From Mytilus trossulus (lineage: Eukaryota), in NCBI RefSeq assembly GCF_036588685.1, contig NC_086379.1, positions 21,576,001-21,640,000 on the forward strand: a DNA stretch of 64,000 nucleotides, given 5' to 3'. The notes under the pieces were generated by a model. The model had not been told where the DNA came from. It ran no database searches and worked only from the letters and a program-made list of their open reading frames with translations. This document shows, piece by piece, positions 28,601 to 53,500 of this stretch. How positions within the stretch are numbered: the stretch's first letter is position 1; every line of letters begins with the position of its first letter. The translations under genes and the position numbers were made by a program.

Positions 28601-31600
28601 GTGTCCTTCAGCTGGCCCCTAAACAAATATATACTAGTTCAGTGATAATGAACGCCATACTAATTTCCAAATTGACATAAGAAATACTTATATGATGTAT
28701 AGTTCAAAGTCTCCCATTTCCTAACAGTATAATTCAAACATTTATCATGTTTATATTTCAGTAAGATATATTTCAAACACACAGATGTCCTTAATTTGTG
28801 TGGCTCAGTCTTTAATGTTCAATGTTGTATTTTCATAAACCGTTGTTTGCTTGTCTTGTCATCGTTTTAGTCGTTGTTTTTTTTGTGGTTATTTTTTAAA
28901 TAATAAGGAGTTATTTCAACCAACACGATATTGTACGACTGTATTAATCTACAACATGCCATTATGGTCGAAACGTTAGTTAAGTATGACGCAGAAAGAT
29001 AACTGAACAGTCTTCACATAAGACAGAAAAGATCGTTTTTTTAGTAAAGGGAAATAGTCAGTATCGAATACTTCCGAACAATCAACCTATATAAATATAT
29101 CTATACCGAATATAAACACTTGCTCAAGAGGTGTATGGAAAGAAGTGTCATACATATACGGAATTCAGATTCAAATAGGTAAGAACATCAAAACTGACAA
29201 ATAAAATCAATCAACGGAACAAGTTAGAACAACTGCAATATATCGGACTTGGATCATGCATTATCTGACAAACATGGTGGATTTAACTTGTTTTAATAGC
29301 TAGATAAACCTCCTTCTTATATAACAGCTGTTATGTTACAGATCTGATATATCGACGACTTTGAATGAACGGAAACTGCATCTAGATTCAAAATCAATGA
29401 GAGCTCGATACATTTTTTGGTTTTTTACATGACAACAAGTATTTGCCTAACATATAATTAAGAGTAACATACCCAGACACATATCTTTAGCTTCATCTGA
29501 GCCGTCCCTGCAGTGAACTTTTCCATCACATTTATCATATGATGCGATATATTGTTTACCATCGTTACATCTTAAATAACCCTTAGCACAAGCTTTCTCT
29601 GCAACAACAAGTACATGTCATCATTTAATTAAATGATTCTTATTTAGTTTTTGTCTCTTCCTGATTTATATTGCCCTTCGATAATATCGAATTAATGGAT
29701 ATACAAAAATCTACTTTTACTTAATTAGCCACAACACTGATGTCCAGTCTATATAAAATAACATATTGGTGAAGTTTTATCGGTTGCTAAAAACGCAAGT
29801 AACAATATAGTTTTGTTCACAAGTGTCCGAATGAAGGAAATGAACATTGATTTTCAATACAACAATTTATTTATTTTTCGAATTCATCTAGACATCAACA
29901 CTGCATCAAAAATTGTCTTTCGATGTGACTAAAAGATAAAGGAAAGGCCCTCTTTCGATTACCTTATATCAAATTTTGTTCACATTTTAAAAAAAATCAA
30001 AAGTTACAAAAGGTAGACATTTTGTATATCTTTTGGTGATTCAAAAGGCAGTTGAAATGGCCCACTTTTTTTTTGTCAAAAGGTGTATAAAAGGGCAACT
30101 TTTAGTATTCAAAAAGGAAGACAATAGTTATATCAAAGATGGACTTTATTTTGTCAGAAGGTGTATAAAATGGCAACTTTTAGTTTTTAAAAAGGAAGAC
30201 AATAGTTATATCAAAGATGGACTTTTTTGTCATAAGGTGTATAAAAGGGAAACTTTTAGTATTTAAAAAGGAAGACAATAGTTACATCAAAGATGGACTT
30301 TTAGTTATTCCAAATGTATCCATATCAAAACAGAAGTTGGACTTTTGATTAAATTTGGTCCTCAAAAGAGTACCTTTTGTTATAAAAAAATCAACAATTT
30401 TATACCTTTTAGAAACAAAATATTGATAAAATATGAACAAAAGAAATGCATGGTAGGCAAGATTTCCATATGCATGGCACCTCTTTTTTGTTGATGAAAT
30501 ATGCAGAGCAAAACTATGTTTGGGTATCGAAGTAAGTTCAAAGTAACTCTTGAGATAAAAGAGACTTTAATTTTTAGCTACCTCGAGTATTAAATATACA
30601 GATGGTCACCAGAATTCGGCCGTTTTGTACTTCTGCACGTCTGTCTTAAGGGGTCAAGTCATATCACAAACGCAAACCTATAGCTAATATCTTAGTCAAA
30701 TAATAATGTTCCCTGCTCCAATATTCTCACACAGGCACTTGTCTCAACAACAAAAATTTCCTTTATACCTTAATATTAAGGTATAAAGGAACTTTTTTTT
30801 TGAGACAAGTGCCTGTGTATCCTCACCAATGGTTTGTCCTGTAGTTAAATGTGTGTACTGTTTTTGTTATCTGTTATATTGAGTCTAGGGTTTGCTACCC
30901 TTTTGCATAATCACCTGTCCAATGGCAAGCTTTTAATATATTGTTGCATCAGAATAGACTTAACTGGGGTCTCCTTGTATATGGTGATTCATTTTACTTT
31001 AAACACCTTGTATATAAAAACGAAGATGTAATTTGTTCAACGTGTTAAAGGCCTTTTATAGCTGAGTATGTGCTAGGGTCTTTGCTAATTGTTGAAGACA
31101 GTACAGTGACCTGTAGTTGTTTACTTCTACATGTAGTAAACTGGTTTCTTATGAAGAGTTGTCTCATTGGCATTTATACCATACCTTCTTTTCTATATTA
31201 ATGTAACTTAATAGTTCATCTATAAATGGTCATTTCATATTTGTAAATTTGTTTTCTGCACTTGAATGGCACCAAAATTGCAACAAAATGAAAACATTTT
31301 ATTTGATTTGTTTTTTAATTATCTTTTATCATCCACTTTAATGTAACCCCAACATCTGGGGTGTCTTTAATGTTCACATCCCCTATTACACGGCTCTGTA
31401 ATAGTCGCCTGCTCTTGGTGGAGCATATATCTAAATATGCCCCATCCAATTTTGCCTTGTACTCCTTAAATTTTGAAGACTGCCAAGATGGTTGATGGGT
31501 TATAAAACCCTCTTGGCCTTCTTCATCAGACGACATGTAAGTTGGTTTTAAAGCCTCTGTTATCTTTGCCTTTTTGTCTGCACCTATGTCATACTTCTCA

Positions 31601-34600
31601 AGAGCTATGAGTCTTCTTTTTGCTTTCTTAAAAGAAAAAAAAGATTGAACATATGAAATTGTAACTTTTAAAAGATTCATTTGGTCAATACAATTTTCTG
31701 AAAGCATTAAAAATAAAGTGAGGTTTGTTTAAATACAGTACTGAAACAAAGAATCATGTTTGTTTGTTGATAATTTTAATACTTCAGCAGTTGTCATTAT
31801 CCTTTTAAAAAAAGACAGTTTTTTTGCTCTTGTTTTTTTTTAGAACACTGTGTATCTGTAAGCTCTTTTTTTAAATGAAGATGTTGGCCCCACATGAATA
31901 CTGAACAAGTCAATCTAATAACAAAACCTGACGACAACTAAGCTGATGTTGAAAGAACAATGGTCACTGTACCTTATAGCTTGGTAAAAGTGGCACATGA
32001 TTTTACATATAAAATATAATTATAACAAAAGACTTTAAGAGTCATTTCACATTCATGGAACAAATATTTTTCTTTATCAAAGTCTTTCTGTGTATTCTAT
32101 AATGTCCTATAATTGTACAAGTAGTTTTATCTATGAGTCTTTCATAAAGATATTTATTTTAAATGTTTATCATCATTATTCACAAATAACTTTTCTGGCA
32201 ATTATATGATAAACACCTTTTCTCAGAATGAATGTTGATGCTTGTGATATCCCCAACATTTATGACTGATGAGAGAGTAACAATATAAATTATCTGTCAA
32301 TTAGTGTTATTTTCATATAAATGAATGATTTTAAAAGATTTACTTTACCTGCCTACATTTATCCTGTATAATTAAGCTGTAAGGTATACTGTAATACATA
32401 CAGATATGTATGTATTTATTTTCGCGATAATAAACCAACTGTGAAATTCGTGAATATAAATGCAAAAATAAGTACAATTAGAGTATATTTAACAAGAGAT
32501 AGGCCTATGTCTGGCCACTTTTTGTGACAGCAAATTGCAAATAATGATGCATACCTCCTTTTTCCTTTCATATAGAGCTCTTTTTCTCTTTTCACCCTCA
32601 TACTTGTTTTTGCTTATAGCAGATTGCTGCTGCTTCTTTGTTAAAAAATATCTTGCCATGGCACCTACAAAAATCAGTAGCACAATCAAACCTGTGACTA
32701 TATATTTTATAACAAAAAATCATGATGTTTAAATATATATATACTGCAGCTGTGCTATGCGAGCAGTCAAATTGCATTGACCGTATATTCATATGTGATA
32801 TACAGTCACTGACCCTATATCACCTTGTTTATGCCGTTGACAATTTGTTTCTGTAGAGTAAATAAAACATACAGGTTCATGGAAATTTAATGTCGTCCGC
32901 TTCAAATTAAGAAATGATATTTTTTACCCAAAATACTTCATTTAGAACAGTTTTAAGAGTTGCAGTACATGAAGAATAACCATACATTGTCTCGAAATAT
33001 CAATGTTATTTTTACTTGGCTCGAAACAGGTAGAAATGCTAGGCGCAGCCTCGTTTTCTACCTGTTTCGAAGCCTTGTACAAATAACATTGATATTTCGA
33101 GACAATGTATGGTTATTCTATATATATATATATGTGAATTCTTTATAGCTAATACCACTTGTATCAAAAATCTAGGGATCAAACTTGGGTGTAGAAACTA
33201 GATTGTCAAATCTTTCTAAAAGTGTCGGTGCATTTTGTAGAGGTGTATTAACAATCAATGTGAAATGAGAAAACATGTTTACCTACAGTGTGATTGAAAT
33301 CAAAGTGCATCAGGGACATATCAGAAAATAGGAGCGCCAAGAGGTTTGATTTTAATCAGACTGTGTTCCTAAGTTATTGCATGCATTCATTTTATTATTT
33401 ATTAAGAAATTATTATCTTCAAATCATACAGTAATTGTAGATTTTAAATAATTACTTATAATATTTTATTTGTATCATAGAGAGACAACTCTTCTCTTCA
33501 GCAGAATGATCAGACTGTAAATTATATTTCCTAATTTTACAATTTAAAGAAGTATAGGGGAAAAGTAAAGAGTCACTGTAAGCTTTTGAAATTTATATCC
33601 ACTTACAATTCAATACGGTGATGTCATTGTATGCTGGATTCCAGCCTTTAACAAAGGTAACGATATGCGACGTCATATCTTTGTTTACTGCATCACTAAC
33701 TCTGAAATGAAAAACATACACATGTACATTCTTGCTAATGTATATACTGAGTATATAGCATATGCATACCTTTCATATTAATGCATATATCAAGATTTTT
33801 GATAACTACATGTACATATATTGTAACATTTGAATAGTAACTTTCAAAATACTAATAAATAAAACCATGCCTTGAAAAATTGACCAATCGACACTATGAA
33901 CTGCAATGCATTGGGAGTTACTACAAGTTTACTTGGCATCACATAAAACATATAGAATCATACGTTAAAAACTATGAAATCATATAGTGTATAAGACTCA
34001 AATTCAACATTGTTTTTTATTAGACAACATATGAATTGTAAAATATTTAACAATACTTTGCATGCCCAGGTTAAAAAATTATTCTGGTGGCTGAAACAAC
34101 CAACATCAACATTTTGCCCTTCTTGTCAATACAGTAGAACAGGTTTAGACCATTAGATTTTCTTAAGCTTTGTACACAATAAAATTGAGAATGGAAATGG
34201 GGAATGTGTCAAAGAGACAACAACCTGACCGTAGAAAAAAACAACAGCAAAAGGTCACCAACAGGTCTTCAATGTAGCGAAAAATTCCCGCACCCAGAGG
34301 ATTCCTTCAGCTGGCCCCTTAACAAATATATCGTAATGGCATTCATTATGTGAAAACAAAATTTTAGGTGCTGATCAAATATTGTAAAAACACCTTTTTC
34401 CTTCAAATCTCCAGCTGAGACCTTTTTCTTCTCCATCTTTGTACCCTTGTTTCACAGCATTCTGCAACATAAAAGGTAGTTTTGGAAACATTTTAAAGGT
34501 TTATTTTTTTGCCAATTGAATTATTAAAATAACTGTACTGTAAATGAAGAGTTGCCAACGTCAATTGTCTATTTGACAGTAAAAAAATACAGTCTTACTA

Positions 34601-37600
34601 TGGAGGCATAGTAATAACAAAAAGAAATGATAAGTGAGAGCTTGAAAAAATGTATAAATTTTAGTTAAAATTCATAGGGCCTTGTTTCAGGGTGGTATAA
34701 ATGGGGTAACTTCATGACGAATAACGGTAAAATTTCTTGCCAAATGATATTTACGTTTTTTTTGTGTGCATGACAATAAAATATGCACTTTCTTTTAGAC
34801 GAGAAAAAAATTGAATGACTTTGATGAATCATGTTAATTCTTTTCCAAAAATAACTGTGATAATAATTATTTGAGACCTCTGACATATCACCATACAGAT
34901 ATTTTGATGAATCACGCTAAAATCTTTATCAATTTGAGGCTAACAGTAGCCTTAAATGGCCTTTTTACACCTGACAGTAAAGGGCATTGCTACTCTCTTG
35001 TATATAAATACTGGTTGGTCTTTTAATAAATATTTTACCGCAAGCAAGGGTACAATACAAGCATTCACTTTCATTTCAAGTCCCCTTTTCCTATTATTAA
35101 GGAAAAATGGTGACATTGATTACTGTTATTCCTTTTGTTTGTTGCCATTTTTGTGCTGTTAAGTTGTATTTTAAGTTAACAAAATTCAGAATGTGCAAGT
35201 TAACAAGTAGTTTCTGAGTTGAAAATGTAAGCTTTCCATTGGTTTTTGTCATAAAAAGTCATCAAGTCAAAAAAAATATATATAGATATATAGACAAATT
35301 TTAAAACAGAGTGAAACTCTTGAAAGCTGTGCATGTGGAAATGGATTGACATGGGGCAAAAAAAAAGCCATTAAGTGATCCTCACTGATATTGGTTTTAC
35401 CTTAACTCCTATTGGAACTACTAAATTTTCTTTAGATTTAGCAGAGCTGCTTTCATGTCCTGTCTGTGCTCTCAGTCGCTGTAATATTTCCCCCTGCCTC
35501 TCAAATATTCTTATCAATAATTCTCTTTGACCTGTGCAGATGAAGAAAAGATTATAAATGGATAATTGGACTACTGTAAATTCAGAAATTGTTGTGTGCA
35601 TTTATTATTGCGATTTTGTCATCTTAGACTAATATGCGATTTTGTGAAAAATCCTGTGTAATTCATATAAAATATTTCAAAATGCAAGTTTCAATTAATG
35701 CGTTTACAACTTGGTCTCATTTTCGCAATAATAAAAACCTCCCATTAATTTCTGAATTTACAGTAATTCAATTTAAATTCAGAAACAAAATACACAATTC
35801 TAAATACCTTGTTTTATGATTAAAAGCTTGTCCTGCACCTTAAAAGCAGCCATACCCTATATTAATTTTTACACCCTCATATCTAACTATATTTAATCTC
35901 TAAGTTTTTTAAATGGATCATAATAAAAAGTCTATTAAGATTTGCCAGGATATCATTTCTATGCTTAATAAGTGGTTTTAAACTGGTCTATGAGTGTGAA
36001 TAATTTTTATGCAACAACCACCTGTTCTATGACATGGACCTGTTGTTCAGTGGTGATTGTTTGTTGGTTTTATTCAAATGAGTTAATCGTTTATTATTTA
36101 CGGTAGTGTTTTTTATATAGATTAGACCAATGGTTTTTCTGTTTGAATTGTGAAAAATACTCATTTTGAGGCTCTTTAAAGCATGCTGTTTGTTGTGATC
36201 CAAGGCTCTGTGTTACAAGTCATACTTTTGTCAACTTTTTATTCATTCTGACTAGCATGACTAGGATATATGAAGGTTGTCTCATTAGCACTCATACTAC
36301 ATCTTCTTATTTATATAATATTATACATGCATGACCTTCATTATATTTGTGAACAGAAAGCAAAAAAACTATTTCTAATGAAAAATCAGTAGATTGTCTC
36401 AAAGAAAAAAATCTTTTAACTTACACATTAATAACAAATAGACCAAATTTGATAAAAAAAAATCACAATTTCATGCACTTTTGTTAATCTTGTGATATAG
36501 AACCCCCTACATTGTACTATATGACACATCTTCAAATAAATTGTCCAGTGGCGGATCCAAGGGGGGTTCTGGGTGTTGGAACCCCCCTTTCTTTTAGGCA
36601 ATCAATACATTTGAATGGGAGCATATACTTGAAAACCCCCCTTTTTACTCTGGGTTGGGACCTCCCTCCCCCCAATTTTTAAAAAGGCTGGATAGTCCAT
36701 ATGCAAATTAAATGTAAGATCCGCCTGATCAGTTGAAATGATAATATGTGTCATATGTGTAATATGTATAAATCTTACCAAGACTGTGAATATCATTGGA
36801 ACTGGTATGCATGGGTCTTGCATTTGGTGTACTGGACTCTCTACAAGGACCACTGCTACCAGCGCTGCCAACACCACTTGTCCTTGGTGTATTAATACCA
36901 CTTGTCCGGCTTGGTGTATTAATACTACTAGTGCTTGGTGTATTAATACAACAAGTGCTTGGTGTATTTATTCTACTAGTGCTTGGTGTATTAATACTAC
37001 TAGTGCTTGGTGTATTAATACTACTAGTGCTTGGTGTATTCATCCTGTTCCGGACTGGTGTTTGATTTATCTGTAAAGATATTTTCATTTCTTAGGTGTT
37101 AAGCAATTTCGTACAAAAAGCGTGTATTTGAGTACTTGCATGTCTTATGTGGAGACATGGAACACAGTACTTAGTTATAGGGAGCTACCATTTGATTTTT
37201 ATGGGGAGGGGGGGGGGGGGCTAGGATGAAAAATTGTGTCTTGCATTTTTTTTTAGTTGTAATCTCTGTCCTGCCTTTTTATTTTTCACTCTAGACTCTA
37301 TCGTGTCTATCTGGTCCTGGTTTTTTTGTAGTTTATCCTGACTTTTTTAAAAATAAAATTGTCATCCTGCCTTTTTTTCTCAAACTCCTGTCCGAGCCCT
37401 ATTTTTTTCAAATTTCATCCTAGCCCTAACCCCCCCTCCCCCCCCCCCCCCTCAATAAAAATCAAATGGTAGCTCCCTTATCACTATGCAAAAATGAAAC
37501 ATAGAAAAACAGTCATATCCATTTTATGGTCAGACTATATGATTTATACGGATAAGATTATCTAAGATTCATGGTTATATGCACAGGCACTTGTTTCTAT

Positions 37601-40600
37601 CCATTGGAAGAACCACTATCAACGTATATTCGTAAATATACGTTGATAGTGGTTCTTCCAATGGATAGAAACAAGTGCCTGTGGTTATATGAATGATGTA
37701 TAATTTTCTGACAGTCTGTCCTATGCTAAATTTAGACATTGGGGTTTTCCATCTGATTTTCGTTGATGTAAGCGGTTAGGAGGATTTCGTTATAAAATTG
37801 TTGCAAAGTGCGTGTTTAATATGTCTAATATCACCAGTTTAATGACTAATAAAATAAAAACGGAGCTTCTTTGTCTACTGAGATTTTTTCTGTAATAGAA
37901 AAGCCGACATTGACACAGCCTATGCCCCTTAGATCATCATAACAACATGACAGTAATATGTTTTTGAAGTGAGATGGTTATCTAGATCTTGTAAAAAGGC
38001 TGATGAAATTTGCGTTTAAAACATGTATACACACTTACTTGTCTTGATGTGGATGAATTCTGATGAAGGATATCAGGACTTGCTGCCAGGAATTCATCCG
38101 TACTTCCATCATCCTCGCTTTGACAGTCTTCGTGCTCGCTGTCTTGTATCAAATCTCTTAAATGACGTGCTTCTCTCTGTCGAACACGACTCCTTTGAAT
38201 AACAGCAAGAGGTGTTTCGTCTAAAGTTTCATCATCAGAAATATCGTTATAAGACATGTTTGATACTAGATTTACAGTGATGACAATATTCGTGTTTGAA
38301 TAGGCGCCGAAATCGCAAGAACCGTGTCTGCGGCTGTGTAAAAGAGATAAGGATGGCATGCCAAGATGCTGATTGGCTAAGTGTTAAAGACATTTCCATA
38401 TACAGATTGGAAAATAACCAAAACTTCAACCGCATGGGAATGAAACTTCAGCGCCATTATTGAACCTGAGAGTTTTATCAGCTTAGATTTGTTTTGATAA
38501 ATGGTGTAAGTACAAAATGCATATCATTTAAAAAACAGAAGAAAAAAAACATGGATATTGTGGTATATATGTGCCCTTCTCCAAAAGGTTCAATAGCCTG
38601 CTGCTGCAGCACCAGCACCACTGGGTGTTTCATGAAGAAACTCAGTTAGAGAAATTCTCATTGACACTTACAAAAACCTGCATGGTTTTAAAATACATGA
38701 TCCATTGTACATGTATGTATCTTGTTTTTATCTGAGGGGGAGGACAGGGGTCCATTCGCCCTTATTCACGTTCGCCATACTACGTTTTTGCCCTGATACC
38801 TGTTCGCCCAGGGTCCATTCGCCCATATTTTTATTATTTTCTGTTTGTTGTCCAGTCGCATAATTTTAAGTATTTGAACAAAATATACTAAAGTTTGTTA
38901 ACAAATTGACAGAGTATTTATATTGCCGCAATAATTTTTATCATTTTCTCTTTGATTTACAGAGTAGAATTGGTAACCATATACAATGTATTTCTCTTTA
39001 TTGATATTTGTTAACAAAATGATTGTATTCAGCTGTCAATCATGAATGTATGCAGTATAACTGAGAATAGCACTGTCTCCGAGTATAATAATGAACTTGT
39101 AAATCCGTTTCATGATTAACAGTTCGTACATCATTGTGAATATATACCATAAAAATATCTGAATAAGTTTATCAACTTCAATGCCCTGAATATCAATATT
39201 TTTTAGTAGGGCGAACGAACTCAGGGCGAACGTACCCAGGGCGAACATGTTATTAGGGCGAACGATCCCGATACCCTCCCACCCCTGTTCTCCTTTCTCC
39301 TACCCCTCTTCTCCTTATTTTTTTTTTAATTTACCGAAAAAAAAGAGAGATATTTTATTTTTTCATATTTTATTTTTTCTCCAACTTTTTCTCCTTTCTC
39401 CCAGCCTTCCTCTCCTTTCTCCTACCCCCTTTCTCCTTTCTCCTACCCTCTTTCTCCCTGTCTCCCTTACCCCTGTCCTCCCCCTCTTATCTTATACCAA
39501 AAAATTAAAAATAGAAATTGAAAAATATAACTTTAATGTTGTACATGTACATTTACATATATATGCATTTCTGACAGCCATTTGTGTAAAAAAAAAGAAA
39601 GTAATATGAAATTAAAAAATATAACTTTAATCCTAAACAATATATTGTTTTAAACCAGGCATATGCACCAGAAAGTCATCATCAGCAATAAATGTTTTTT
39701 ATATATAGAGGGGGATACATGTATGACCTTTATCTGGACTCCAGAATCAGGTGTTTTTTTTGAAAATTTTTTAGTCATACATTGGTATCACTTTGTAGTC
39801 TTCTTCGTCCGAATACTTTTGGTTTTCACACTGTTACTTTAGTATAAATCAATAGAAATCTATGAAATTTAAACGCAAGATTTATGACCACTAAAGGAAG
39901 GTTGGGATTGATTTTTAGATTTTGGTTTCAACAGTTAAGGAATTAGGGGCCAAAAAAGGGCCCAAATAAGCATTGTTCTTGGTTTTCGCACAATAACTTT
40001 AGTATACATGTAAGTAAATAGAAATCAATGAACATAAGGTCTATGACCACAAAAGGAAGGTTGGGATTGATTTTGGGAGTTGAAGTCCCTACAGTTTAGG
40101 AATTTGGGGCCAAAAAGGGTCCAAATAAGCATTTCTCTTGGTTTTCACACCATAACATTAGTATAGGTAAATAGAAATCTATTATAATATATAGATAGAG
40201 ATAAACTTTAAACAGCAAGAATGTACAGTTAATTATAAGTAGACCTAAAAAAAAGTCAACATGACCAAAATGGTCAATTGACCCACTAAGGAGTTATTGT
40301 CCTTTATAGTCAATTTTTAACAGTTTTCTTAAAATTTGTAAATTTTTACTAACATTTTCCATTAAACTACTGGGCAAAATTCATTATAGATAGAGATAAT
40401 TGTAAGTAGCAAGAATGTTCAGTACAAACACATCACCATCACCAAAACACAATTTTGTCATGAATCCATCTGCGTTTAATTTTCACATAGACCAAGGTGA
40501 GCGACACAGGCTCTTTAGAACCTTTAGTTATTTATACCTGTATTAACCTGTATCATACGTAGTTACCTGTAATATTGACTTAAATGAAAGGTTTTATTGT

Positions 40601-43600
40601 TGACTCAAATGAAATATATAGTTTGTGGCGCAAATGAAAGATTTTTCAGCGCAAATGAAATGCCTATTGGTGCAAAAGCTAAGCACTGAACTGATTCAAC
40701 CTTTCTGCTAGGATTTGGACAAACCAATTTAGTTTTTTTCAAGTGTGGCCTAGTTCCAATGCTAACTTGTACATTTTGTACCAATATAAAAAAAGAGGAT
40801 GTGGTATGATTGCAATAAAGACAAGTCTATCAACAAGATACAGTAATTAACAACTATAGGTCACCATACCACCTTCAGCAATGAGCAATTAATTTGAGAT
40901 AATTGAAGAAAAAATTATCACTATTAAAGAAATGTATATTTCCAGATTTCAAAAGGTCACCAAATTGACAGGTGATCCACAAATTCTTTCAGAGTCTAGT
41001 TTGGTGACCTTTTTTTTTATATAAAAATTAAATATCTTTATTTCAGAATGCTTTATGGAGAGATTATAGTGATAAAGAGAAGTGGTGTAGATGGAGCACA
41101 TTTTCTTTTAACTGTTAAAGACTGTTTGTTAGGAAGGTAATTATAATTAAAATACTTATATACAATGTAAAAGAAAATGATTATCTGTGGAAATTAACAT
41201 TAAAAGGGGAGTTAACTCTGCAAAAATGACTCTTTTTTGTCAGTTTTTGGTTGATTTTCTTTAAATTTGTGTATGATACTTTGATGGGGTTATAAGTTTG
41301 TGTATGATTATATTATATAATTTTCTTCTCATGAAATGTACAAAATTATATTCTGGGTTATGGATATTTAATATATACTAAAAATTAAATCTTAAAAATC
41401 TTCTGTTGCTATAACGATGAGGTTAGGGTCAAATTTATGCTAGATTAATAGATTGACTGGACAATAATGCATTCTGGATAGTATCCAAGCTGATCTGTGT
41501 CCACACTTGTTTTTAATGTAAATAAAGGGCTACAATGTAGTTGTAGATGAGATTGTTCTGAAATCATAAGAACTAGTTAGTTTCCCCGCTCGCTGTTAAG
41601 GATTATCATTAAGAATGTAGCTTAAGTTTGACCCAAAAGTCAAACCATTATCATGATTATAGTATAAACCATATGTAGATTTGTGCTGGGTTTTTTTTCA
41701 GGGGCAAAGATTGTGATATTATAATTAAGCTTCCAAATGTTTCTGCAGAACATTGTAGAATTCATGTATCAGACAATAAACAGGTAAATTGTATTTATAA
41801 ACAGGTGAATTGTATTTTAAAGATCTTTGTTCACTTAAACTAGTACCAAACCATGAAAAAAACAGTACTGATGATCATGCTGATATATCCAGTGGTGGAT
41901 CCAGGGGAGGGAGGGGTTTGGGGGTTGGACTCCCCCTTTTTTTTGCTGATCAATGCATTTCATCCCCCCCCTTTTTTTAAATGTCAGGATTCGCTCCTGT
42001 ATATTTGGTTAAAAAAAGTTGTTTATGTTTTCTTACCCTGATGTTTATGACCATAGTTATTGTATCAAACACTATCATTAAATTAAAGTGTAGATTATCT
42101 TCCTATTATGTCCTTATTTTTTTTATGCCACACCTGTTAAATTATGGATGATAAATAAAAAATGGGAAATGATAGGAGGAGTAGGACATCTTTGTACTGA
42201 GGAAACATTTTCTTTTTCATGCCAAAGTTTATTCAATTGTATATACAACAAAGTTTAATTTGATTGGTAAAATTAACAACTATAAGATAAGATAATTTTA
42301 TTAACCAATCAAGGTGCCCAAAATTTGAGCTATACAATCAAATGAATGAATTACAAAATAAAGCACAGAAAATGATTAAAGTACATAACATTTAGACAAA
42401 AAAAAACACACATAAAAACACATTTACACTTATTAACCTGATATAAACCAAGTTATTGACAACACATAGTTGTTATGGGTGCCACTGTGATCTGGAGAAA
42501 TTACATAATTCTTTATAGTACTAGGTCAATGGGAGACAACTCCTGATCAATTTTATTCGTTATATATATCTACATTTTTCTTCTATTTTTTTTTAGAACA
42601 ACAATATTGTCTATACTTTTCTTTTGTTCTTCAGAAAGAGAGTGCAATAAATTAGATAAGTTTGAAGTAACAAACAAATCTTCAGATGAAAGAATCTAAA
42701 CAAATTTCTATAAGTCACTAAACAATATGTCTAATTATAAATCATTCTTTTGTCCAAAAATGTTTTATTTTGAAAAAAAACCCGACTGTATGAAAGACAT
42801 GAAATATGTACTGTTCATTTCTTTTGTAGGTTTTTTTGACAAACTTGAGTATAGATAATCCCGTCGTGGTCAACTCTTCATATTTTGACAAACCAGTAAA
42901 ATTGAATCATGGAGATGTATTCACCATCATAGACCGATCTTTTCGCTTTGATGAAACAGAGGAATCAATGCAGAGCAAGTTAAGAAATCCAGATAAAGAT
43001 TTGAATTTGAACAGACCATTAATCAGGATAGATGATGCATCAAAGGTAATTTGTATTTTTAGTTCCATACTGACAAAGTTGAAGTAGACTCTAGGTTTGC
43101 ACTCTGTCCGTTTGTTGATCTGTTCATTTGCATGTCTGGCAAATCATTTTTCTTCACTTTTTCTTCTTGCTTGAAGATATTGATTTGATTTTATCATGGC
43201 AAGTTACAGATCAAGTTCAAGATTTGTGTCAGTCTAATGATTTTGTGCAGAGTTATGGTCCTTGGAAAATTTACCTAAATAATCAGTGTTCCATACTTTT
43301 TAGTCCACTACTGATGAAATTGAAGGGGACTTTAGGTTTGCACTCTGTCTGTTAATCCATTCTTCAGGGCGGCAAATCAGTTTTCCATTTTTAGCTCACC
43401 TGGCATGAAGGGCCAAGTGAGCTTTTCTCAACACTTGGCGTCAGTCGTTGTGGTCGTTAACTTTTTACATTTTTAACCTCTTCTAGAGAACCACTGTAGG
43501 GAATGACACCAAACATGGCACAAATGTTCCTTATGAGGTGCTAACCAAGTGTTGTTACTTTGTAGCCAATCCATCATCCAAGATGGCCACCAGCGGGGGA

Positions 43601-46600
43601 CTTAGTTTAAAATAGGACTCTATGGGAAATGCATACAAATGACTTCTTTTAAAGAAACACTGAATGGAATGAAACCAAATATGGCATGAATGTTCCTTAT
43701 GAGGTGCTGACCAAGTGTTGTTACTTTGTAGCTGATCCATTATCCAAGATGGCCTCCAGCGTAGGACTTAGTTTAACATAGGACCCTAAGGAAAATATAT
43801 ACAAATGTCTTCTTTTAGAAAACCACTGAATGGAATGAAACCAAACATGGCATGAATTTTCCTTATGAGGTGCTGACCAAGTGTTGTTACTCTGTAGCGG
43901 ATCCATCATCCAAGATGGCTGTCAGTGGGGGACTTTTGAATGAAATCAAACCTAGCCTGAATAGATATAGGAAGATGTGGTGTGAGTGCCAATGAGACAA
44001 CTCTCCATCCAAATAACAATTTAAAAATTAAACCATTATAGGTTAAAGTACGGCCTTCAACACGGAGCGCCTTCAACACGGAGCCTTGGCTCACACCGAA
44101 CAACAAGCTATAAAGGGCCCCAAAATTACTAGTGTAAAACCATTCAAACGGGAAAACCAACGGTCTAATCTGTATAAAGAATGTTCCTTTCCTTATAAGG
44201 TTGTGTTGTTACTTATAGCCAAATTTTATATTTATTTATATGATTTCAAAAACCCAAGTAGAATCAGGTGAGCGATACAGGCTCTTTGGAGCCTCTAGTT
44301 TTCTTTGTTCTTGAAGATATTGATTTGATATTTGGTATATAGTTTTATCATGACAAGTTCATATAAATCATGGAAGAAATTTGTTTCAGTCTTATTATTT
44401 TGTTATGGTCCATATCTAATATTAGAGTTCTATATATGTTAAACCATATTTCTGTACAAAGGGAGATACATGTAACTCATTTTTAATAGACATTCCTTGG
44501 TAAATTGTTTGAAATTTCTTTGCTTTTTCAAACTAATTTTCTGAATGCTATATATATAATTTTTCTTTATGATGCAAAATCCTTTGATTAGATGATAATC
44601 TATTTTCATTATGTTATATATCTTAATACATTACATTGTGTAGATAAAAGTTGTTGACAGTTTATAGATAGATATTTAACAAATTTTAATTAGTTTGTGA
44701 CACATAAAAGATAAAATATTTGGAATTATTAATTATATTTGATTATAATCTAAAAATAGATATATATATTGTATTACATCGTATCTTTTGTCTTGTTAGT
44801 TTTTTCAAATTTCTTTCATTATGCTTGAAAATATTGATTGATAATATTTATACGTACAAACACATTAATGCTACTTATACTTCCTTTTAGTCTTTGAAAA
44901 GTAAAAGTCAAAAGAAGTCAAAAGAAGAAGTGAAGTCTAGAAGCAAAAGACGTCGTATGCTGAAGAAACAAAAGTAAGAATCATAATTTAACATGTTTAT
45001 ACTTGCTTCCTCAAAAATAATTGTTATATTGTGGCTTATGAAATATTACTTTATTGAATTAATATTGAATCTGATTCCTAATACTTATGAATAAAAACAA
45101 AAATAAACTTTCACACTATCCTGAATACAATATAGTTGTTCATGATCATCTATCACTGTCTGGAAAAAAATCATTGGAAATGCAAGACATAGGGAATTTG
45201 CAACTCAGTTACTATTAGCATCAAGCTTTATATTGAAGAAGATGTTGCATGAGTGCCAATGAGACAACTCTCCACCCAAGTCACAATTTATAAAAATTAA
45301 CCATTTATATATAGGCCAAAGAACAGTCAAGATTCACCACTAAGCTTTGACTAACACTGATCAGTTAGCTAAAAAGGTCCCCAAAATGTTCTAGTGTAAA
45401 TCCCATCTTGGAGAAACCAAGGGTCTTATCTATATAAAAACGAGAAAAACTAATGAACCACATCAACAAACTACAACTACTAAACATCAGATTTATGCCT
45501 TAGGACAGGTGCTAACAATAACAGGGGGTTTAAATCTTTACCCTTATCTGAAACAATAGTGTAACATCACAACATAGAAAGACACCTTATAAAATATCAA
45601 TTGAAATTGCTTAACTAAATCAAAAGACATATTAACACAAGAGAACATACACTGAACGAAGAAATTTGATCTATGATATAAAAAAAGATGTGGTATGATT
45701 GCCCCTGAGACAACTCTCAACAAGAGACCAAAATGACACAGAAATAAATAACAACTATGGGAAACCGTGCAGTCTCATGAATAACAAATCTGTATCACTT
45801 AAAAAAAAACGACAACCACTGAATTACATGATACAATGTAAACAATTAAATAAACCAATTTAGTAAGGCCGTTAGTTTCAGGTTAAGATGATCATGAATT
45901 TCAATCAACTTGAACTTTGTGACTTCAACTTGAAACTCAGTATTTATATTCACCGTGATATGATCTATCTTATTTGAATGAAACTACCAATAAGAAAGGG
46001 ATCAAGAAACTGCTGTAGGAGACTTGTTGTCTCAAGGATTTCAAGAAAAAAATGTTTCTGCCTAATTGGTCAGCTTGTTACATGTATTAAACAAACAACC
46101 CAAACTGATTCTGACATGCCCAAAAATTCAGTTATTGTTACTACATGTATTATAAAGATGCCGTTTTTATTCTTTTTACTGTAGAGTTGTAAAGGCAAAT
46201 GTTAACCATTCACTTTTATTTCAGATATTGGAAACGAAGAGAAAAAGAATGGGAAAATGACAATATAGATGAAGTAGTTGAAAATGAGAATAGACAAATA
46301 GGAGAAACAAAAGGAAAAAATAGTGTAGATAGCTTTTATGTGGACATGTTTAAAGATCCACTATTTTCGAAAATGGTCACATACCAAAAGGCTAAGAGAT
46401 TATCCTTAGCTTTGAAAGAAAACGGACAGAAAAATAATGATATTTTAGAATAGATTTGGATTTATATATAGTTTTATATAGCAAATGTTTAAAATTTGTT
46501 CATTTTATATATATTAGCTCATAATCAAAATCTGCATTTAATAGTCAAGTGGATTATGAATAGGAATTATTCAATTTCATGTTTAAACAACAAATTTTAT

Positions 46601-47536
46601 GTAAATTTTGAGATAACATTTCTGTCCTTATCTTTGGTTCAAAAGATATGAATAAGATTTTAGAGAGCATGCACATTGACTACTAGTGAAGCAGCTACTT
46701 GTATTCAAGAAAGCTTGCACATTGGTTTATTATACAGTGAAGCAGCTACTAGAATACTTAATTCATAATTTTGAATCAGAGCTTTATTACATTTTTCATG
46801 GCAGAAAAAGCAAAGCGTCCAAGAAAATCTTGCCCTAAATGTTATACAGTTTTTTCAGACAGACATGCTCGTAGACATCTACTTGAATGTAATGTTCAGT
46901 TTTGTGAAAGTGAAGTATCTCAATCTGATAATGAAAATATACCCCTGTCAAGTGTGGGAAATAACACATCAAATTATCAAAATAATATCAGTGATGATGA
47001 AAATGAAATAAATTATGATTGTATGAATAAATTCAGAAATTTATCAAATATATCCCGTAATAATTTAGAAGATGAGGATATTGAAAGCTACTTTGATAGA
47101 TGTGAAGATAATCTGACTGATTCATATAGTTCTGATAATTACTCAGATGTAGAGTTTGATATTGAATGTCATGAAAGTATTGGTGTAGATCAAGAACATA
47201 ATTCAGAGTCAGATATATCTCAAATTACTTACTGGTTTTGTAAACTTTTATTATTATGGCAATGTATTTATTATATATCAGATGCAGCTATTTGTTTTCT
47301 TTTGAACATTTTAGCTACATTTTTTAAATTGTTGTCAGTGAATTCAGATGTTTGTTCTAAAGTACAAAATGTTTTTCCCAAAAACATGTACCAGTTGTCT
47401 AAACTTTTGAAAAGTGATATGTTAGATTTTAAACAATATGTTGTTTGTACCAACTGCTATTCATTGTATGAATTCGAAGATTGTTATACGACCGCAAATT
47501 TTGAAAAAATTTTCGTCGTATATTGCTATCACGTTG

Positions 47537-47568
<32 letters not shown>

Positions 47569-50500
47569 CGAATACTTTTAGTTTTCACACTCTAACTTTA
47601 GTAAAAGTGAATAGAAATCTATGAAATTTTAACACAAGGTTTATGACCATAAAAGGAAGGCTGGTATTGATTTTGGGAGTTTTGGTCCCAACATTTTAGG
47701 AATTAGGGGCCAAAAAGGGCCCAAATAAGCATTTTCTTGGTTTTCGCACTATAACTTTAGTTTAAGTTAATAGAAATCTATGAAAATTTGACACAAGGTT
47801 TATAACCACAAAATAAAGGTTGGGATTGATTTTGGGAGTTTCGGTCCCAACAGTTTAGGAATTAGGGGCCAAAAAGGGACCCAAATAAGCATTTTTCTTG
47901 GTTTTCGCACCATAGCGTTAGTATAAGTAAATAGAAATCTATGAAATTTAAACACAAGGTTTATGACAATAAAAGGAAGGTTGGTATTGATTTTGGAAGT
48001 TTTGGTCCCAACAGTTAAGGAAAGAGGGGCCCCAAAGGGTCCAAAATTAAACTTTGTTTGATTTCATCAAAATTGAATAATTGGGGTTCTTTAATATGCC
48101 GAATCTAACTGTGTATGTAGATTCTTAATTTTTGGTCCCGTTTTCAAATTGGTCTACATTAAGGTCCAAAGGGTCCAAAATTAAACTTAGTTTGATTTTA
48201 ACAAAAATTGAAACCTTGGGGTTCTTTGATATGCTGAATCTAAAAATGTACTTAGATTTTTGATTATTGGCCCAGTTTTCAAGTTGGCCCAAATCGGGGT
48301 CCAAAATTAAACATTGTTTGATTTCATCAAAAATTGAATAATTGGGGTTCTTTGATATGCCAAATCTAACTGTGTATGTAGATTCTTAATTTTTGGTCCA
48401 GTTTTAAAATTGGTCTGAATTAAAGTGCAAAGGGTCCAAAATTAAACTAAGTTTGATTTTAACAAAAATTAAATTCTTGGGCCTCTTTGATATGCTGAAT
48501 CTAAACATGTACTTAGATTTTTGATTATGGGCCCAGTTTTCAAGTTGGTCCAAATCAGGATCTAAAATTATTATATTAAGTATTGTGCAATAGCAAGTCT
48601 TTTCAATTGCACAGTATTGTGCAATGGCAAGAAATATCTAATTTCACAATATTGTGAAATAGCAAATTTTATTTTCAATTAAGAGTTATCTTTCTTTGTC
48701 CAGTATAGTAAGCAAGAAATATCTGCAAGAATTTTTTTTAATTGGAGTTATCTTTCTTTGTCCAGAATCAACTTAAATCTTTGTTATATACAATATACAA
48801 TGTATATTCACTTTTTACTACCAACTGATAAATTTAAATAATCTTTACCATTCAGTGATAACAAGCAGTTTTTTTACATCATGTATTTAAATGAGTAGTA
48901 ATTGTTGCAAACTCCATTATAATATTTTAATTGAAATTAGTTTTGGAATAAGGGAAAGGGGGATGTGAATAAAAAATTGGGTTAAATTTTTCTCATTTGA
49001 AATTTCATAAATAGAAAGAAAATTTCTTCAAACATTTTTTTGAGAGGATTAATATTCAACAGCAAAGTGAATTGCTCTAAGAGAAAACAAAAATTTTAAG
49101 TTCATTTGAATACATTCATTCTGTGTCAGAAACCTATGCTGTGTCAACTATTTAATCACAATCCAAATTTAGAGCGGAATCCAGCTTGAATGTTGTGTCC
49201 ATACTTGCCCCAACCGTTCAGGGTTCAACCTCTGCGGTCGTATAAAGCTACGCCCTGCGGAGCATCTGGTTATCATATTGTTGAAGGTTCAAAAGTCTCT
49301 AAAAAGTGCTCTTTTATAGAGTTTCCTAATCATAGACTTCCTTATTTGAGAAAAAGATGTAATCAGCCTCTTTTAATGGAAATTAAAAGTGAACCTTCAA
49401 AAATATTAGCCCCTTTCAAAATATACTGTTACAAATCTATTGAGTCCAGCTTAAGTTATTTTGTTAAAAGACAACATTTTGAAGACTTATGTGAACAATG
49501 GCGATTGAGAGAAACAAGGGAAGATATTATGTATGACATTTATGATGGAAAATTATGGGATGATTTTAATGGGAAAAAATATATTTTTTTTACAAAAGAG
49601 GATAATTATGGTTGCATTTTAAATGTTGATTGGTTTCAACCATACAAACATACTCATTGTTCTATAGGTGTCATGTACATAGCATTTTTTAACCTTCCAC
49701 GAGATCAAAGATTTAGAAGAGAAAATGTTTTACTAGTTGGTGTTATTCCGGATATGAAAACAGAGCCTAAGACAAACACCTTTGTTACTCCTCTTGTTCA
49801 AGAACTAAAGAAGTCTTGGTCAGAAGGTTTTCAAATGTTTTCAAATAAGTCACCTTTGATATTGAAATGCTTTAAACTTGCACTCATATGTGTTGGATGT
49901 GACATTCCTGCTAGTAGAAAGTTGTGTGGTTTCCTTGGACATGCAGCAACCTCAGGTTGCAACAAGTGTAAAAAGAAATTCCCAGGAACAGTAGGTGAAA
50001 AAAATTATGGTGGTTTTGATAGATTAGAATGGCTGTCCAGAGACAACGAAAGTCATCGTCAAGAATGTGGTTTGATACACAATTCTACTAGCAAGGGAGA
50101 CAAAGAGAACCTTGAACGTCAGTTTGGTACAAGATATTCGGCATTGCTTGACCTTGACTACTTTGATCCAGTAAGAATGACAGCAATTGATCCAATGCAT
50201 AACTTATTTTTAGGAACAGCAAAACACATGCTTTCTGTATGGAAGACAAAGAAATTATTATGTGATGATGACTTTAAAAAAATTCAGACAAAACTGGATC
50301 CGTTTGAATGTCCTTCAGATGTAGGGAGACTACCCAAGAAATTTGCTTCATCCTATGGGTCATTTAATGCAGATCAGTACAAAAATTGGACCCTATTGTT
50401 TTCTATATATGCTTTAACTGATTTATTGCCAAAGGAACACCTTGATTGCTGGAGAAAGTTTGTGTTAGCATGTAGAAGATTGTGTTCAATGTATATTAGT

Positions 50501-53500
50501 GTTGGTAATGCAAAAGTTGCAGATAGATTGCTAGTTGACTTTTGTAAAAAATTTGAACAATTGTATGGGCAAGATTTTGTCACACCGAATATGCACCTTC
50601 ATGGGCATTTATATGATTGTATAATAGATTTTGGACCAGTATATTCTTTCTGGCTTTTTAGTTTTGAAAGAGAAAATGGTATATTAGGCTCTTACAAAAC
50701 TAATAAAAAAAACATAGAGGCTCAGTTAATGAGGAGATTTTTAAGAGTCTTTTGCAAGGGAAAAAGAATCCCAAATGGATGAAAGATTTATGTCTTTATT
50801 CAATGATATGTCAAACACTACAAGGGAGAGGGGTACATTAAATGATGTTTCTGTTTCTTTGAAACCTAGCATTCTCGATATGTCATCACAATTTGTACCT
50901 ATAAAAGAAGTATGTTGGTATTTATCAGATAACATTTTTGTTCCAAAAATGAAGGATGCTGTTCTGAGTGATTGTGAAATAAGACTGTTAAGCCAAATGT
51001 ATTCAACACTGTATCAGTATGATTTTATTGTTTGTCCCTCTGTCAAAGTGTGCAAAACCTTGTATTTAAATGGAACATTGCTTGGTTCCAAAATGAGCAG
51101 AAGTGTAAGATCATCCTATATTACAGCTTATTGGTGTAATAACGAAGGGACAATTGACACTGACAATTTCGATTTATCTCCTCATCCAGGACAAATTGTA
51201 CAAATGTATAAGCATAGTATTATTGTAAATGGAGAAACAAAGACACATTTTTTAGCAAAAGTCAATTGGTACAAGAATTTACCTGCTTCTGTACAGCACT
51301 ATTATGGCAAACCGATTGAAATATGGTCTTCAGAATTATTTGTTCAAGAAGGACCTGCATTATTTATACCAGTACACAGAATTAAATGTAGGTTTGTTCA
51401 TGCGAAAGCAAAATTTAACAGCAGAAATGTAATTATTGTTGCACCAAGAGAGCGTCATATTTTATGAATATGGATCCACTTATAATGATACAATTTATAA
51501 TCATATTGTTTTACTTTGTACAAAAAAATACAACTATTTAAGAAATTGATTATTTGACAATGTCAAAATTACAATATTTTCTTGTCATGATTCTATTATT
51601 TAATTTTATGAATGTGTCATAACTTTTTATATATTTTTTCAAAGAAAGTACTTTCTATGGAGTGTATTTGATTATTGTAGATATTTATGATGTTATGAGT
51701 ATTCCTTTTGTATTGGATATTTAGATGTGTTTTGATGTAGTGTGTGTTATACTAATCTTACATGCCAGTACTTGCTTTGAAACAGTTATATGTAAATAAA
51801 TTAAACATAAAGTTTATTATTAAATAAACAATTTTGTTACAATTATTGTAGTTATTTATATACCACTATTATTTATGTTTGCTTAACAAATAGCAAAAAA
51901 GGTTGAGTTCATGCATGGTTCTAATACCCAGGTGTTATACATGTATCATTGAATCATACAAAATTCTTATAAACTATTTCATTTACCGGTAATACTTAGG
52001 GAAAATCTTTCAAATGTATAAAGATGTGTAAATTTTATCATATAACAAAGTATTGGAGAAAGGTCAAATGTTTCCTCAACAGTTTAAGTCAGTGAAGTAG
52101 ATATGTACTCTTTCAGCGAAACATCCTGTAGACAATAGTAGTAGTTAGTTTGCTGAGAATGGTTTATAGACACGACTATTAACATAAGGTTTTACATTCA
52201 GTCATTAATTTGGGGGGGGGGGGGGGGGGGGAGTCATAAATAGTTTACCTATACCTTTTGACGTGCATTAAATGTCACAGATAAAATTTAGAATGGAAAT
52301 GGGGAATGTGTCAAAGAGACAACAACCCGACCAAATAAAAAACAACAGCAGAAGGTCACCAACAGGTCTGTCATAAACATTTTACATACAAAAAATGTCG
52401 AAGGTTGTCTGTTCTCTACCTTCTGACACGCACACAATGTCAAAGGTTGTCTGTCCTATCCCTTTTGACATGCATAAATGTCACAGAAAGTCTTTCCTAT
52501 ACATTTTGACATACCACAAAATGTCAAAGGTTGTCTGTTCTATACCTTTTGATATGCATAAAATGTCAAAGGTTGTCTGCTCTATAACTTTTGATATGCA
52601 TAAAATGTCAAAGGTTGTCTGTTCTATACCTTTTGATATGCACAAAATGTCAAAGGTTGTCTGTTCTATACCTTTTGATATGCACAAAATGTCAAAGGTT
52701 GTCTGTTCTATACCTTTTGATATGCATAAAATGTCAAAGGTTGTCTGTTCTATACCTTTTGATATGCACAAAATGTCAAAGGTTGTCTGTCGATTACATT
52801 TCAAGGTTCACAAAATGTCAAAGATGGTCTTTTATATACATTTCAACATACCAAAATGTCAAAGGTGGTATTTTGTCAATAAAAAGGCGACAAAATATTA
52901 TCTGTAGAAGAAGGTAATCTTTTGATTGTATTTTATTATACCCAAAAGTTATCAAAAGATGATTTTTCATGCAGTGCAATCATTGTTAATTAACCTCTTA
53001 AGTAAAACGAACAACCAATATCATGAATATAGACATCAACAGTCAAGATTTCTTAATCGAAAATAGGACATTATACATACGAAGTCGGTATATATATATA
53101 CGAATGTAACAACTTTGCTGGTATCTAAAGTTCTCAGATCTTAATCACCAAGTCATATAGTTAGTAATAGTCGGCTTTCAGTATTCCGGGTAAAATTGAG
53201 AATGGAAATAGGGAATGTCTCAAAGAGACAACAACCCGACCAAATAAAAAAACAACAGCAGAAGGTCACCAACAGGTCTTCAATGTAGCGAGAAATTCCT
53301 GGACCCGGAGGCGTCCTTCAGCTGGCCCCTAAACAAATATATTGATAATGAACGCCATACTAATTTCCAAATTGTACACACGAAACTAAAATTCAAATAA
53401 TACAAGACTAACAAAGGCCAGAGGCTCCTGACTTGGTACAGGCGCAAAAATGCGGATGAAGGTAAATCCCGGAAAAAGCTTCGAACGCATGACATTTAAT

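Follow-up and report, generated by a model that had tools for sequence, protein, structure and literature searches.

Transposons of the CACTA/EnSpm group are defined by their ends and by C(2)C and H(3)H motifs, as given in sections of PMC4158355 and PMC12730594. According to portions of PMC12730594 and PMC6719617, TET/JBP has been captured by transposons, EnSpm among them, and passed between lineages; the transposon accessory genes described in those portions act on silencing. For the FHA domain of Ki-67, excerpts of PMC8354752 name NIFK and Hklp2 as its partners, and show it followed in Ki-67 by a PP1-binding motif, a repeat region and an LR domain. An excerpt of PMC4037201 has this domain binding only an extended, 44-residue ligand, and names Ser+1 and Asn-1 as the pThr-recognition positions. 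In the NIFK ligand Thr238 and then Thr234 is phosphorylated, the pThr-Pro sites being set by CDK1 and GSK3 (PMC4811767, in extract).

The window analysed here, a stretch of 64,000 nucleotides from Mytilus trossulus (contig NC_086379.1), contains a CACTA/EnSpm DNA transposon of 23,078 bp (29899-52976), with CACTG ends and a CAA target-site duplication on both sides. Its left terminal inverted repeat (29899..29924, plus strand) begins with CACTG immediately after one CAA, and its right one (52951..52976, minus strand) terminates in CAGTG immediately before the other; the two repeats are identical at 22 of 26 nucleotides. All CACT[AG] pairs in the window were enumerated (86 x 82 sites). The 29899/52976 pair ranked top, and was the sole pair in that enumeration to combine a 3-bp duplication with an identity of at least 18/26. 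The CAC..GTG inverted termini and the 3-bp target-site duplication of CACTA/EnSpm elements are both present. Subterminal tandem repeats, to which no strand is assigned, are found on the left at 30068..30302 (78-bp period) and on the right at 52392..52866 (42-bp period, 11 copies), and the word CAAAAGGT/CAAAGGT is common to both arrays. A stretch resembling the left subterminal repeat (77% over 84 nt) also lies downstream of the relative in L001, which is family B DNA. The element is near-identical in several mussel data sets and is transcribed. A metagenome scan matched a single 3-kb locus, too short to show neighbouring genes, and two scans of viral sequences gave no match.

Two other features of the window deserve a brief mention. 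Two CACAGG hairpins, near 30727 and near 37583, were considered as possible element ends and rejected, being short and self-contained, with one of them absent in X1 and X19. They belong to short hairpin elements (37572-37684 and approximately 30727-30817) that have CACAGGCACTTG at their ends and what look like 8-bp duplications; the copy in intron 1 of the accessory gene is missing from the X1 and X19 contigs and is therefore polymorphic. To the right of the transposon, Cys-rich exons on the minus strand (54220-56334) are likely to be part of a host gene, and presumably encode repeats of the LDL-receptor class A type.

Three genes lie within the element, namely a divergently transcribed accessory gene (hereafter the partner), a Ki-67-type FHA gene and a transposase. 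The partner and FHA genes are arranged head to head, with 243 bp between their start codons. The transposase (46798..51467, plus strand) scores above the Pfam cut-off for Transposase_21 (E 1.6e-11), and the motifs of EnSpm-type transposases could all be located (a DDE triad along with C(2)C and H(3-4)H). The window copy is broken, by a 1.8-kb repeat insertion at about 47488-49273 and by a frame change near 50750. The insertion that splits the gene (47488-49273) is itself a composite repeat. RNA contigs from other runs match up to 47487 and then run on for 2.2-2.6 kb, as expected if the transposase copies in those runs do not have the insertion. One X19 RNA contig contains the FHA exon 42828-43043 together with 46225-47487, so that the FHA frame shares a contig with the beginning of the transposase frame, although this does not prove a single transcript. 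The FHA stop and the transposase start are separated by 344 nt containing six ATGs.

The partner gene occupies 31315..38257 on the minus strand. It has seven exons (38257-38039, 37070-36779, 35531-35401, 34461-34394, 33701-33607, 32664-32555 and 31626-31315) and an unbroken frame of 408 aa, identical to the Mytilus trossulus protein P0001 over residues 35-442 of that record. No Pfam family was matched at E 0.1, and its neighbours in the ESM Atlas fall into clusters that are either unnamed or DUF4616, so that it is described as ORF2-like and any homology to plant ORF2 is putative. A fold search with the partner model returned generic helical hairpins only (Z <=6.6). The predicted structure consists of a disordered front rich in Thr-Pro (TP), a long helix and a basic helical core. 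Transcript evidence comes from runs treated as RNA; they are presumed to be RNA, and their contigs are spliced. An X20 contig joins 37070 to 38039, which is the splice between exons 1 and 2. Contigs of X17 and X20 span the 3' portion of exon 2, stop fitting at 36777 and also cover the last exon, and the lengths between would match exons 3-6. In addition, an X19 contig splices from intron 1 (near 37550; 37550-37724) into exon 2, giving an alternative 5' exon of the partner. An RNA contig spliced to the FHA exons extends back to 38138, on the strand opposite partner exon 1; this stretch (38138-38505) reflects either overlapping 5' ends of the two genes or an assembly join.

Exon 2 of the partner (37070-36779, minus strand, 292 nt) has AG/GT ends and continuous phase. 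It is Ser/Thr-rich and predicted to be disordered, with a pLDDT below 50, and is supported by RNA contigs. The first-pass annotation had counted nine TP dipeptides in this exon, seven of them within tandem repeats, and that count was borne out by the gene model and by TRF. The repeats form a coding minisatellite (36873..37043, minus strand) of seven 24-bp units, one of which is 27 bp, with INTPSTSS as the typical unit. Units of the form [MI]NTP begin at 37043, 37019, 36995, 36971, 36947, 36923 and 36896; TRF reports a period of 24 with 6.8 copies and an 88% match over 36876-37040. The same annotation had drawn attention to T-S-S-I within the units and to a Ser four residues before TP. Both are present, with T-S-S-I occurring three times (T-x-x-I six times) and Ser at -4 in five of the nine TP, but T-x-x-I and TP never share their Thr, and Ile is found at +3 of none of the ten TP in the partner N-terminal region. 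A Ser at -4 is to be expected often because 40 of the 97 residues of exon 2 (41%) are Ser or Thr.

The array varies in length. There are seven units in the window, six in an X19 contig (where the 30 intervening letters are identical to window 37041-37070) and three in both M. californianus P0019 and M. coruscus P0003; three looser units are found in each of M. coruscus P0035 and P0038, and one unit in P0013. The array is thus an unstable but ordinary coding minisatellite of variable copy number. None of its unit sequence, its 8-residue spacing or its T-x-x-I motif is kept in families B and C. One rival view is that both the array and the TP excess are neutral low-complexity sequence, slippage having multiplied a chance Thr-Pro unit in a tolerant linker. 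That neutral explanation draws on the difference in unit number within and between species, and on the fact that eight of the ten changed codons among the seven window units are non-synonymous. It is further consistent with the poor conservation of exon 2, in which 20 of 74 aligned residues are shared with family B compared to 128 of 194 in the core, and with the lack of a TP excess in an oyster relative. We nevertheless consider it quite unlikely as an account of the whole Thr-Pro content, as the counts given below survive removal of the array and recur in other families with other sequence.

The regularity of the array also permits a reading in which a GSK3 relay and recognition of the Fbw7/Cdc4 type would limit the lifetime of the accessory protein. 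The Fbw7/Cdc4-type consensus is hydrophobic-x-pThr-Pro with Ser or Thr at +4. In six of the seven units Ser or Thr is found at +4 and position -2 is Ile or Met; with a period of eight, the Thr, the Ser at +4 and the Thr of the following unit form a ladder with steps of four residues. In an exon that is 41% Ser/Thr such a pattern is cheap, however, and Ser or Thr is present at +4 of only one of the five TP in family B and of none of the four in family C, making a phosphodegron very unlikely.

The Thr-Pro content was compared with an expectation from 20,000 shuffles of the N-terminal region, and the array was also collapsed to one unit. The window partner has 10 TP where 1.6 are expected; with the array collapsed there are still 4 against an expectation of 0.52 (p 0.00025). 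The partners of M. coruscus (6 against 0.8) and M. californianus (5 against 0.67) behave similarly. The distant family B, represented by P0009, has 5 against 0.74 (p 0.0002), and family C a milder 4 against 1.3-1.4 (p 0.02-0.04). No excess was seen in the family C fragment P0044 (1 against 1.2) or in the oyster relative P0040 (1 against 0.74). The latter nevertheless has three full S/T-P-x-K/R sites, ie CDK-type sites are present in the oyster protein without the TP excess, which suggests that proline-directed sites outlive any single repeat unit. In family B the region contains no T-x-x-I at all and has its own loose unit, RTP repeated three times, an arrangement reached by 0.03% of shuffles. 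SP was enriched in none of the partners tested, even though families A and B have more Ser than Thr, and this too argues against the neutral explanation. To judge from these sequence comparisons, the best explanation is that the array would have enlarged an older Thr-Pro cluster in the front half of the partner.

The partner has clustered S/T-P sites within a region predicted to be disordered, the pattern looked for in a CDK/MAPK substrate. Our preferred reading, held tentatively and at a little under an even chance, is that host proline-directed kinases of the CDK1/MAPK type act on the TP cluster at multiple sites and would in this way regulate the accessory protein. Kinases of this type would phosphorylate the cluster in dividing cells, and phosphorylation might then release the basic helical core of the partner from DNA or promote turnover of the protein; the tandem array would be a product of slippage added on to the older cluster. 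In the host control, the tails of long Ki-67-like proteins, TP is 2.9x and SP 1.8x over expectation, and since these tails favour TP over SP the Thr bias needs no FHA reader within the element. Some observations count against the host-kinase reading. The TP enrichment in families A and B exceeds that of most host windows, as 5.8% of 585 such windows reach four of seven prolines after Thr (the level of the collapsed window partner) and 1% reach five of seven (the family B level). In addition, full CDK sites account for only two of the ten TP in the window partner and for none in family B.

The Ki-67-type FHA gene lies at 38501..46453 on the plus strand, with its start in 38501-38505 and later exons at 41047-41136, 41702-41783, 42830-43045, 44891-44973 and 46225-46453, and is supported by RNA contigs. 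Its product of 234 aa is identical to P0032 and is laid out as FHA domain, basic stretch and conserved C-terminal motif. The domain is matched by Pfam FHA with E 8.7e-14, and among solved structures those of the human Ki-67 FHA come nearest to it (E 2e-30). The full set of Ki-67 features, namely the PP1-binding motif, the repeat region and the LR domain, is absent from this 234-aa protein. Its tail is short and was found solely in element copies among the 205 proteins compared. Within it, the motif at P0032 residues 196-222 is kept in families A and B and in no other protein of the set; it is a candidate binding helix for the transposase or the partner. The protein giving the second-best FHA match, P0046, was considered as a further element and rejected, as it is Ki-67 from a fish, with the FHA present twice.

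For comparison of individual positions, 147 non-element rows were used, after 7 element sequences, 5 scallop sequences, 3 partial models and 6 isoform duplicates had been set aside. In human numbering, the window FHA retains Gly30, Arg31, Ser45, His48, Asn67 and Asn72, and by its sequence it is a member of the Ki-67-type family with the core residues in place. Other positions that are conserved in the subfamily have changed. Position 38 is Ile in all element FHAs and Arg in 143 of the 147 other rows, and position 46 is Ala, Gly or Asn in the elements and Lys in 120. Position 66 is Asp in the elements and in one other row; position 69 is Val or Leu in the elements and Thr in 132. The window copy (Ile38, Ala46, Asp66, Val69) thus has none of Arg38, Lys46, Thr69 or a non-acidic residue at 66. 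The family B FHA has Tyr67 in place of Asn67, the isoform found not extending over position 31, and His48 is replaced by Arg in one M. galloprovincialis element FHA. Departures at 45, 46 or 66 are also seen in gastropod host Ki-67 models (Lottia, Bulinus and Candidula), and such changes, whether of Ser45, Lys46 or Thr66, therefore need not abolish function. Three gastropod host Ki-67 models (P0138, P0122 and P0167) do not have the conserved Ser45, from which pThr binding may be lost in that lineage too.

A quick tree built from 99 columns, in which the branches are long, places both mussel families in one group with a scallop SET-FHA protein (SH-aLRT 90), separate from host Ki-67. The grouping suggests, though not firmly, an old capture of the FHA domain. 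No Mytilus host Ki-67 was identified among 20 named proteins. The Argopecten irradians proteins P0170 and P0204, which are on short contigs and fall with the mussel element FHAs in the quick tree, have a SET domain and acidic repeats in addition to a Ki-67-type FHA without Ser45 and Asn67; possibly they represent a further mobile element with an FHA of this lineage.

It had been proposed that the element encodes both a phospho-reader and its substrate, with the repeats acting as a built-in ligand. FHA domains are specific for pThr, and both the TP enrichment and the RTP unit of family B would fit an FHA reader. What stands of the proposal is that both genes are inside one CACTA element and that the repeat lies in a region predicted to be disordered; on the other side, residues on the pocket side of the FHA have changed. 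The suggested pT-x-x-I ligand is not supported, as no TP in ten proteins is followed by Ile at +3, the family B region contains no T-x-x-I, and this is not the binding mode of Ki-67. Likewise, +4 priming by GSK3 is a weak analogy here, because the residue four before TP is Ser in the mussel units compared to Thr in the Thr234/Thr238 pair of NIFK. Two Thr spaced four apart, as in NIFK, occur at one of the ten TP, in exon 1, and the five such sites of exon 2 have Ser. The tandem repeat is likely not a dedicated ligand for the element FHA.

A weaker form of the proposal is that the element FHA binds the phosphorylated cluster by avidity, and not through pT-x-x-I, linking partner and transposase in mitosis. 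The arrangement of the two genes would suit it, as would the preference for Thr over Ser before Pro in families A and B, with a different TP unit amplified in each. The ligand of the human Ki-67 FHA is itself a pThr-Pro pair, T234/T238 (parts of PMC4037201 and PMC4811767), and the window FHA still has Arg31, Ser45, His48 and Asn67. Against this, Arg38 and Lys46 are lost and Asp66 gained in both families, Asn67 has become Tyr in family B and His48 has become Arg in the M. galloprovincialis copy. Moreover, short phosphopeptides are not bound tightly by the Ki-67 FHA, as reported in a portion of PMC4037201. We regard such a reader/substrate pair as unlikely. On our preferred reading, in which host kinases act on the cluster, the FHA protein might instead make its contacts outside the canonical pThr pocket and serve as a Ki-67-like adaptor or decoy.

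Whether the TP-rich partner and the FHA gene go together bears directly on the avidity model. Adjacency in other species was inferred from accession or gene numbers and from equally long contigs. The M. californianus partner P0019 and FHA protein P0016 are on equally long contigs, with accessions 35 apart. In M. galloprovincialis, the FHA-plus-tail protein P0195 (LOC143049762) is numbered next to the family B partner P0020 (LOC143049761), again with equally long contigs; its FHA is 59% identical over 68 columns and is accompanied by the same basic stretch and C-terminal motif. A second family B pair, P0084 and P0024, is on one chromosome but the gene numbers are not neighbouring. The expected co-occurrence of TP repeats with the FHA gene thus holds to the extent that TP-rich partners accompany it in M. 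californianus and family B, ie in two families, with a different repeat unit in family B. This recurrence favours a reader and its substrate. Four M. coruscus family A partners, which are on contigs other than that of the single FHA gene found in that species, count against it, though these assemblies are fragmented. So does family C, where the TP excess is milder and no FHA gene was found; none was found for the oyster either, in an incomplete search of fragmented assemblies. Co-occurrence would therefore be taken from two positive families, with no clean negative control in the form of an FHA-less element.

The most far-reaching interpretation is that a Ki-67 FHA was captured early by a bivalve CACTA lineage, had its pocket re-tuned and evolved jointly with the element's own TP cluster, amplified separately in two families, as a phospho-switch tying transposition to mitosis. 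This we consider unlikely. If it were true, a cut-and-paste element would be able to sense proliferation by carrying a cell-cycle domain, expressing it on the RNA of its transposase and pairing it with an accessory protein rich in TP. A more practical implication is that a short Mytilus gene annotated as 'Ki-67-like' can be cargo of a transposon and not the host marker.

A search of the literature, supplements and Repbase excepted (the element may be catalogued there), found no description of a CACTA/EnSpm element bearing an FHA or Ki-67 domain, and no paper on animal CACTA accessory proteins was found that describes the arrangement seen in the mussel element. Compared to CACTA/EnSpm elements with an ORF2 of the TnpA type, the mussel element has the same CAC...GTG ends, 3-bp duplication, Transposase_21, subterminal repeats and second gene, but it adds a third gene, the Ki-67-type FHA, and its partner is divergently transcribed. 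Compared to the human Ki-67 FHA/phospho-NIFK complex (PDB 2AFF), the element FHA belongs to the same subfamily (E 2e-30), and the NIFK ligand is likewise built on pThr-Pro. That ligand, however, is 44 residues long, contributes an added strand and uses Thr at each of its two sites, whereas the mussel unit has Ser four before TP; the element FHA differs from human Ki-67 at 38, 46, 66 and 69 and is without the remainder of Ki-67. The closest parallels for the cargo are TET/JBP in fungal EnSpm and other elements and VANC of VANDAL, which are also host-type domains inside complete transposons. TET/JBP and VANC act on DNA methylation, whereas the cargo of the mussel element is a cell-cycle signalling domain of predicted function. 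Extra genes in CACTA elements and the capture of domains by EnSpm are already known, and what is new is the gene set of the mussel element, not the tandem repeat.
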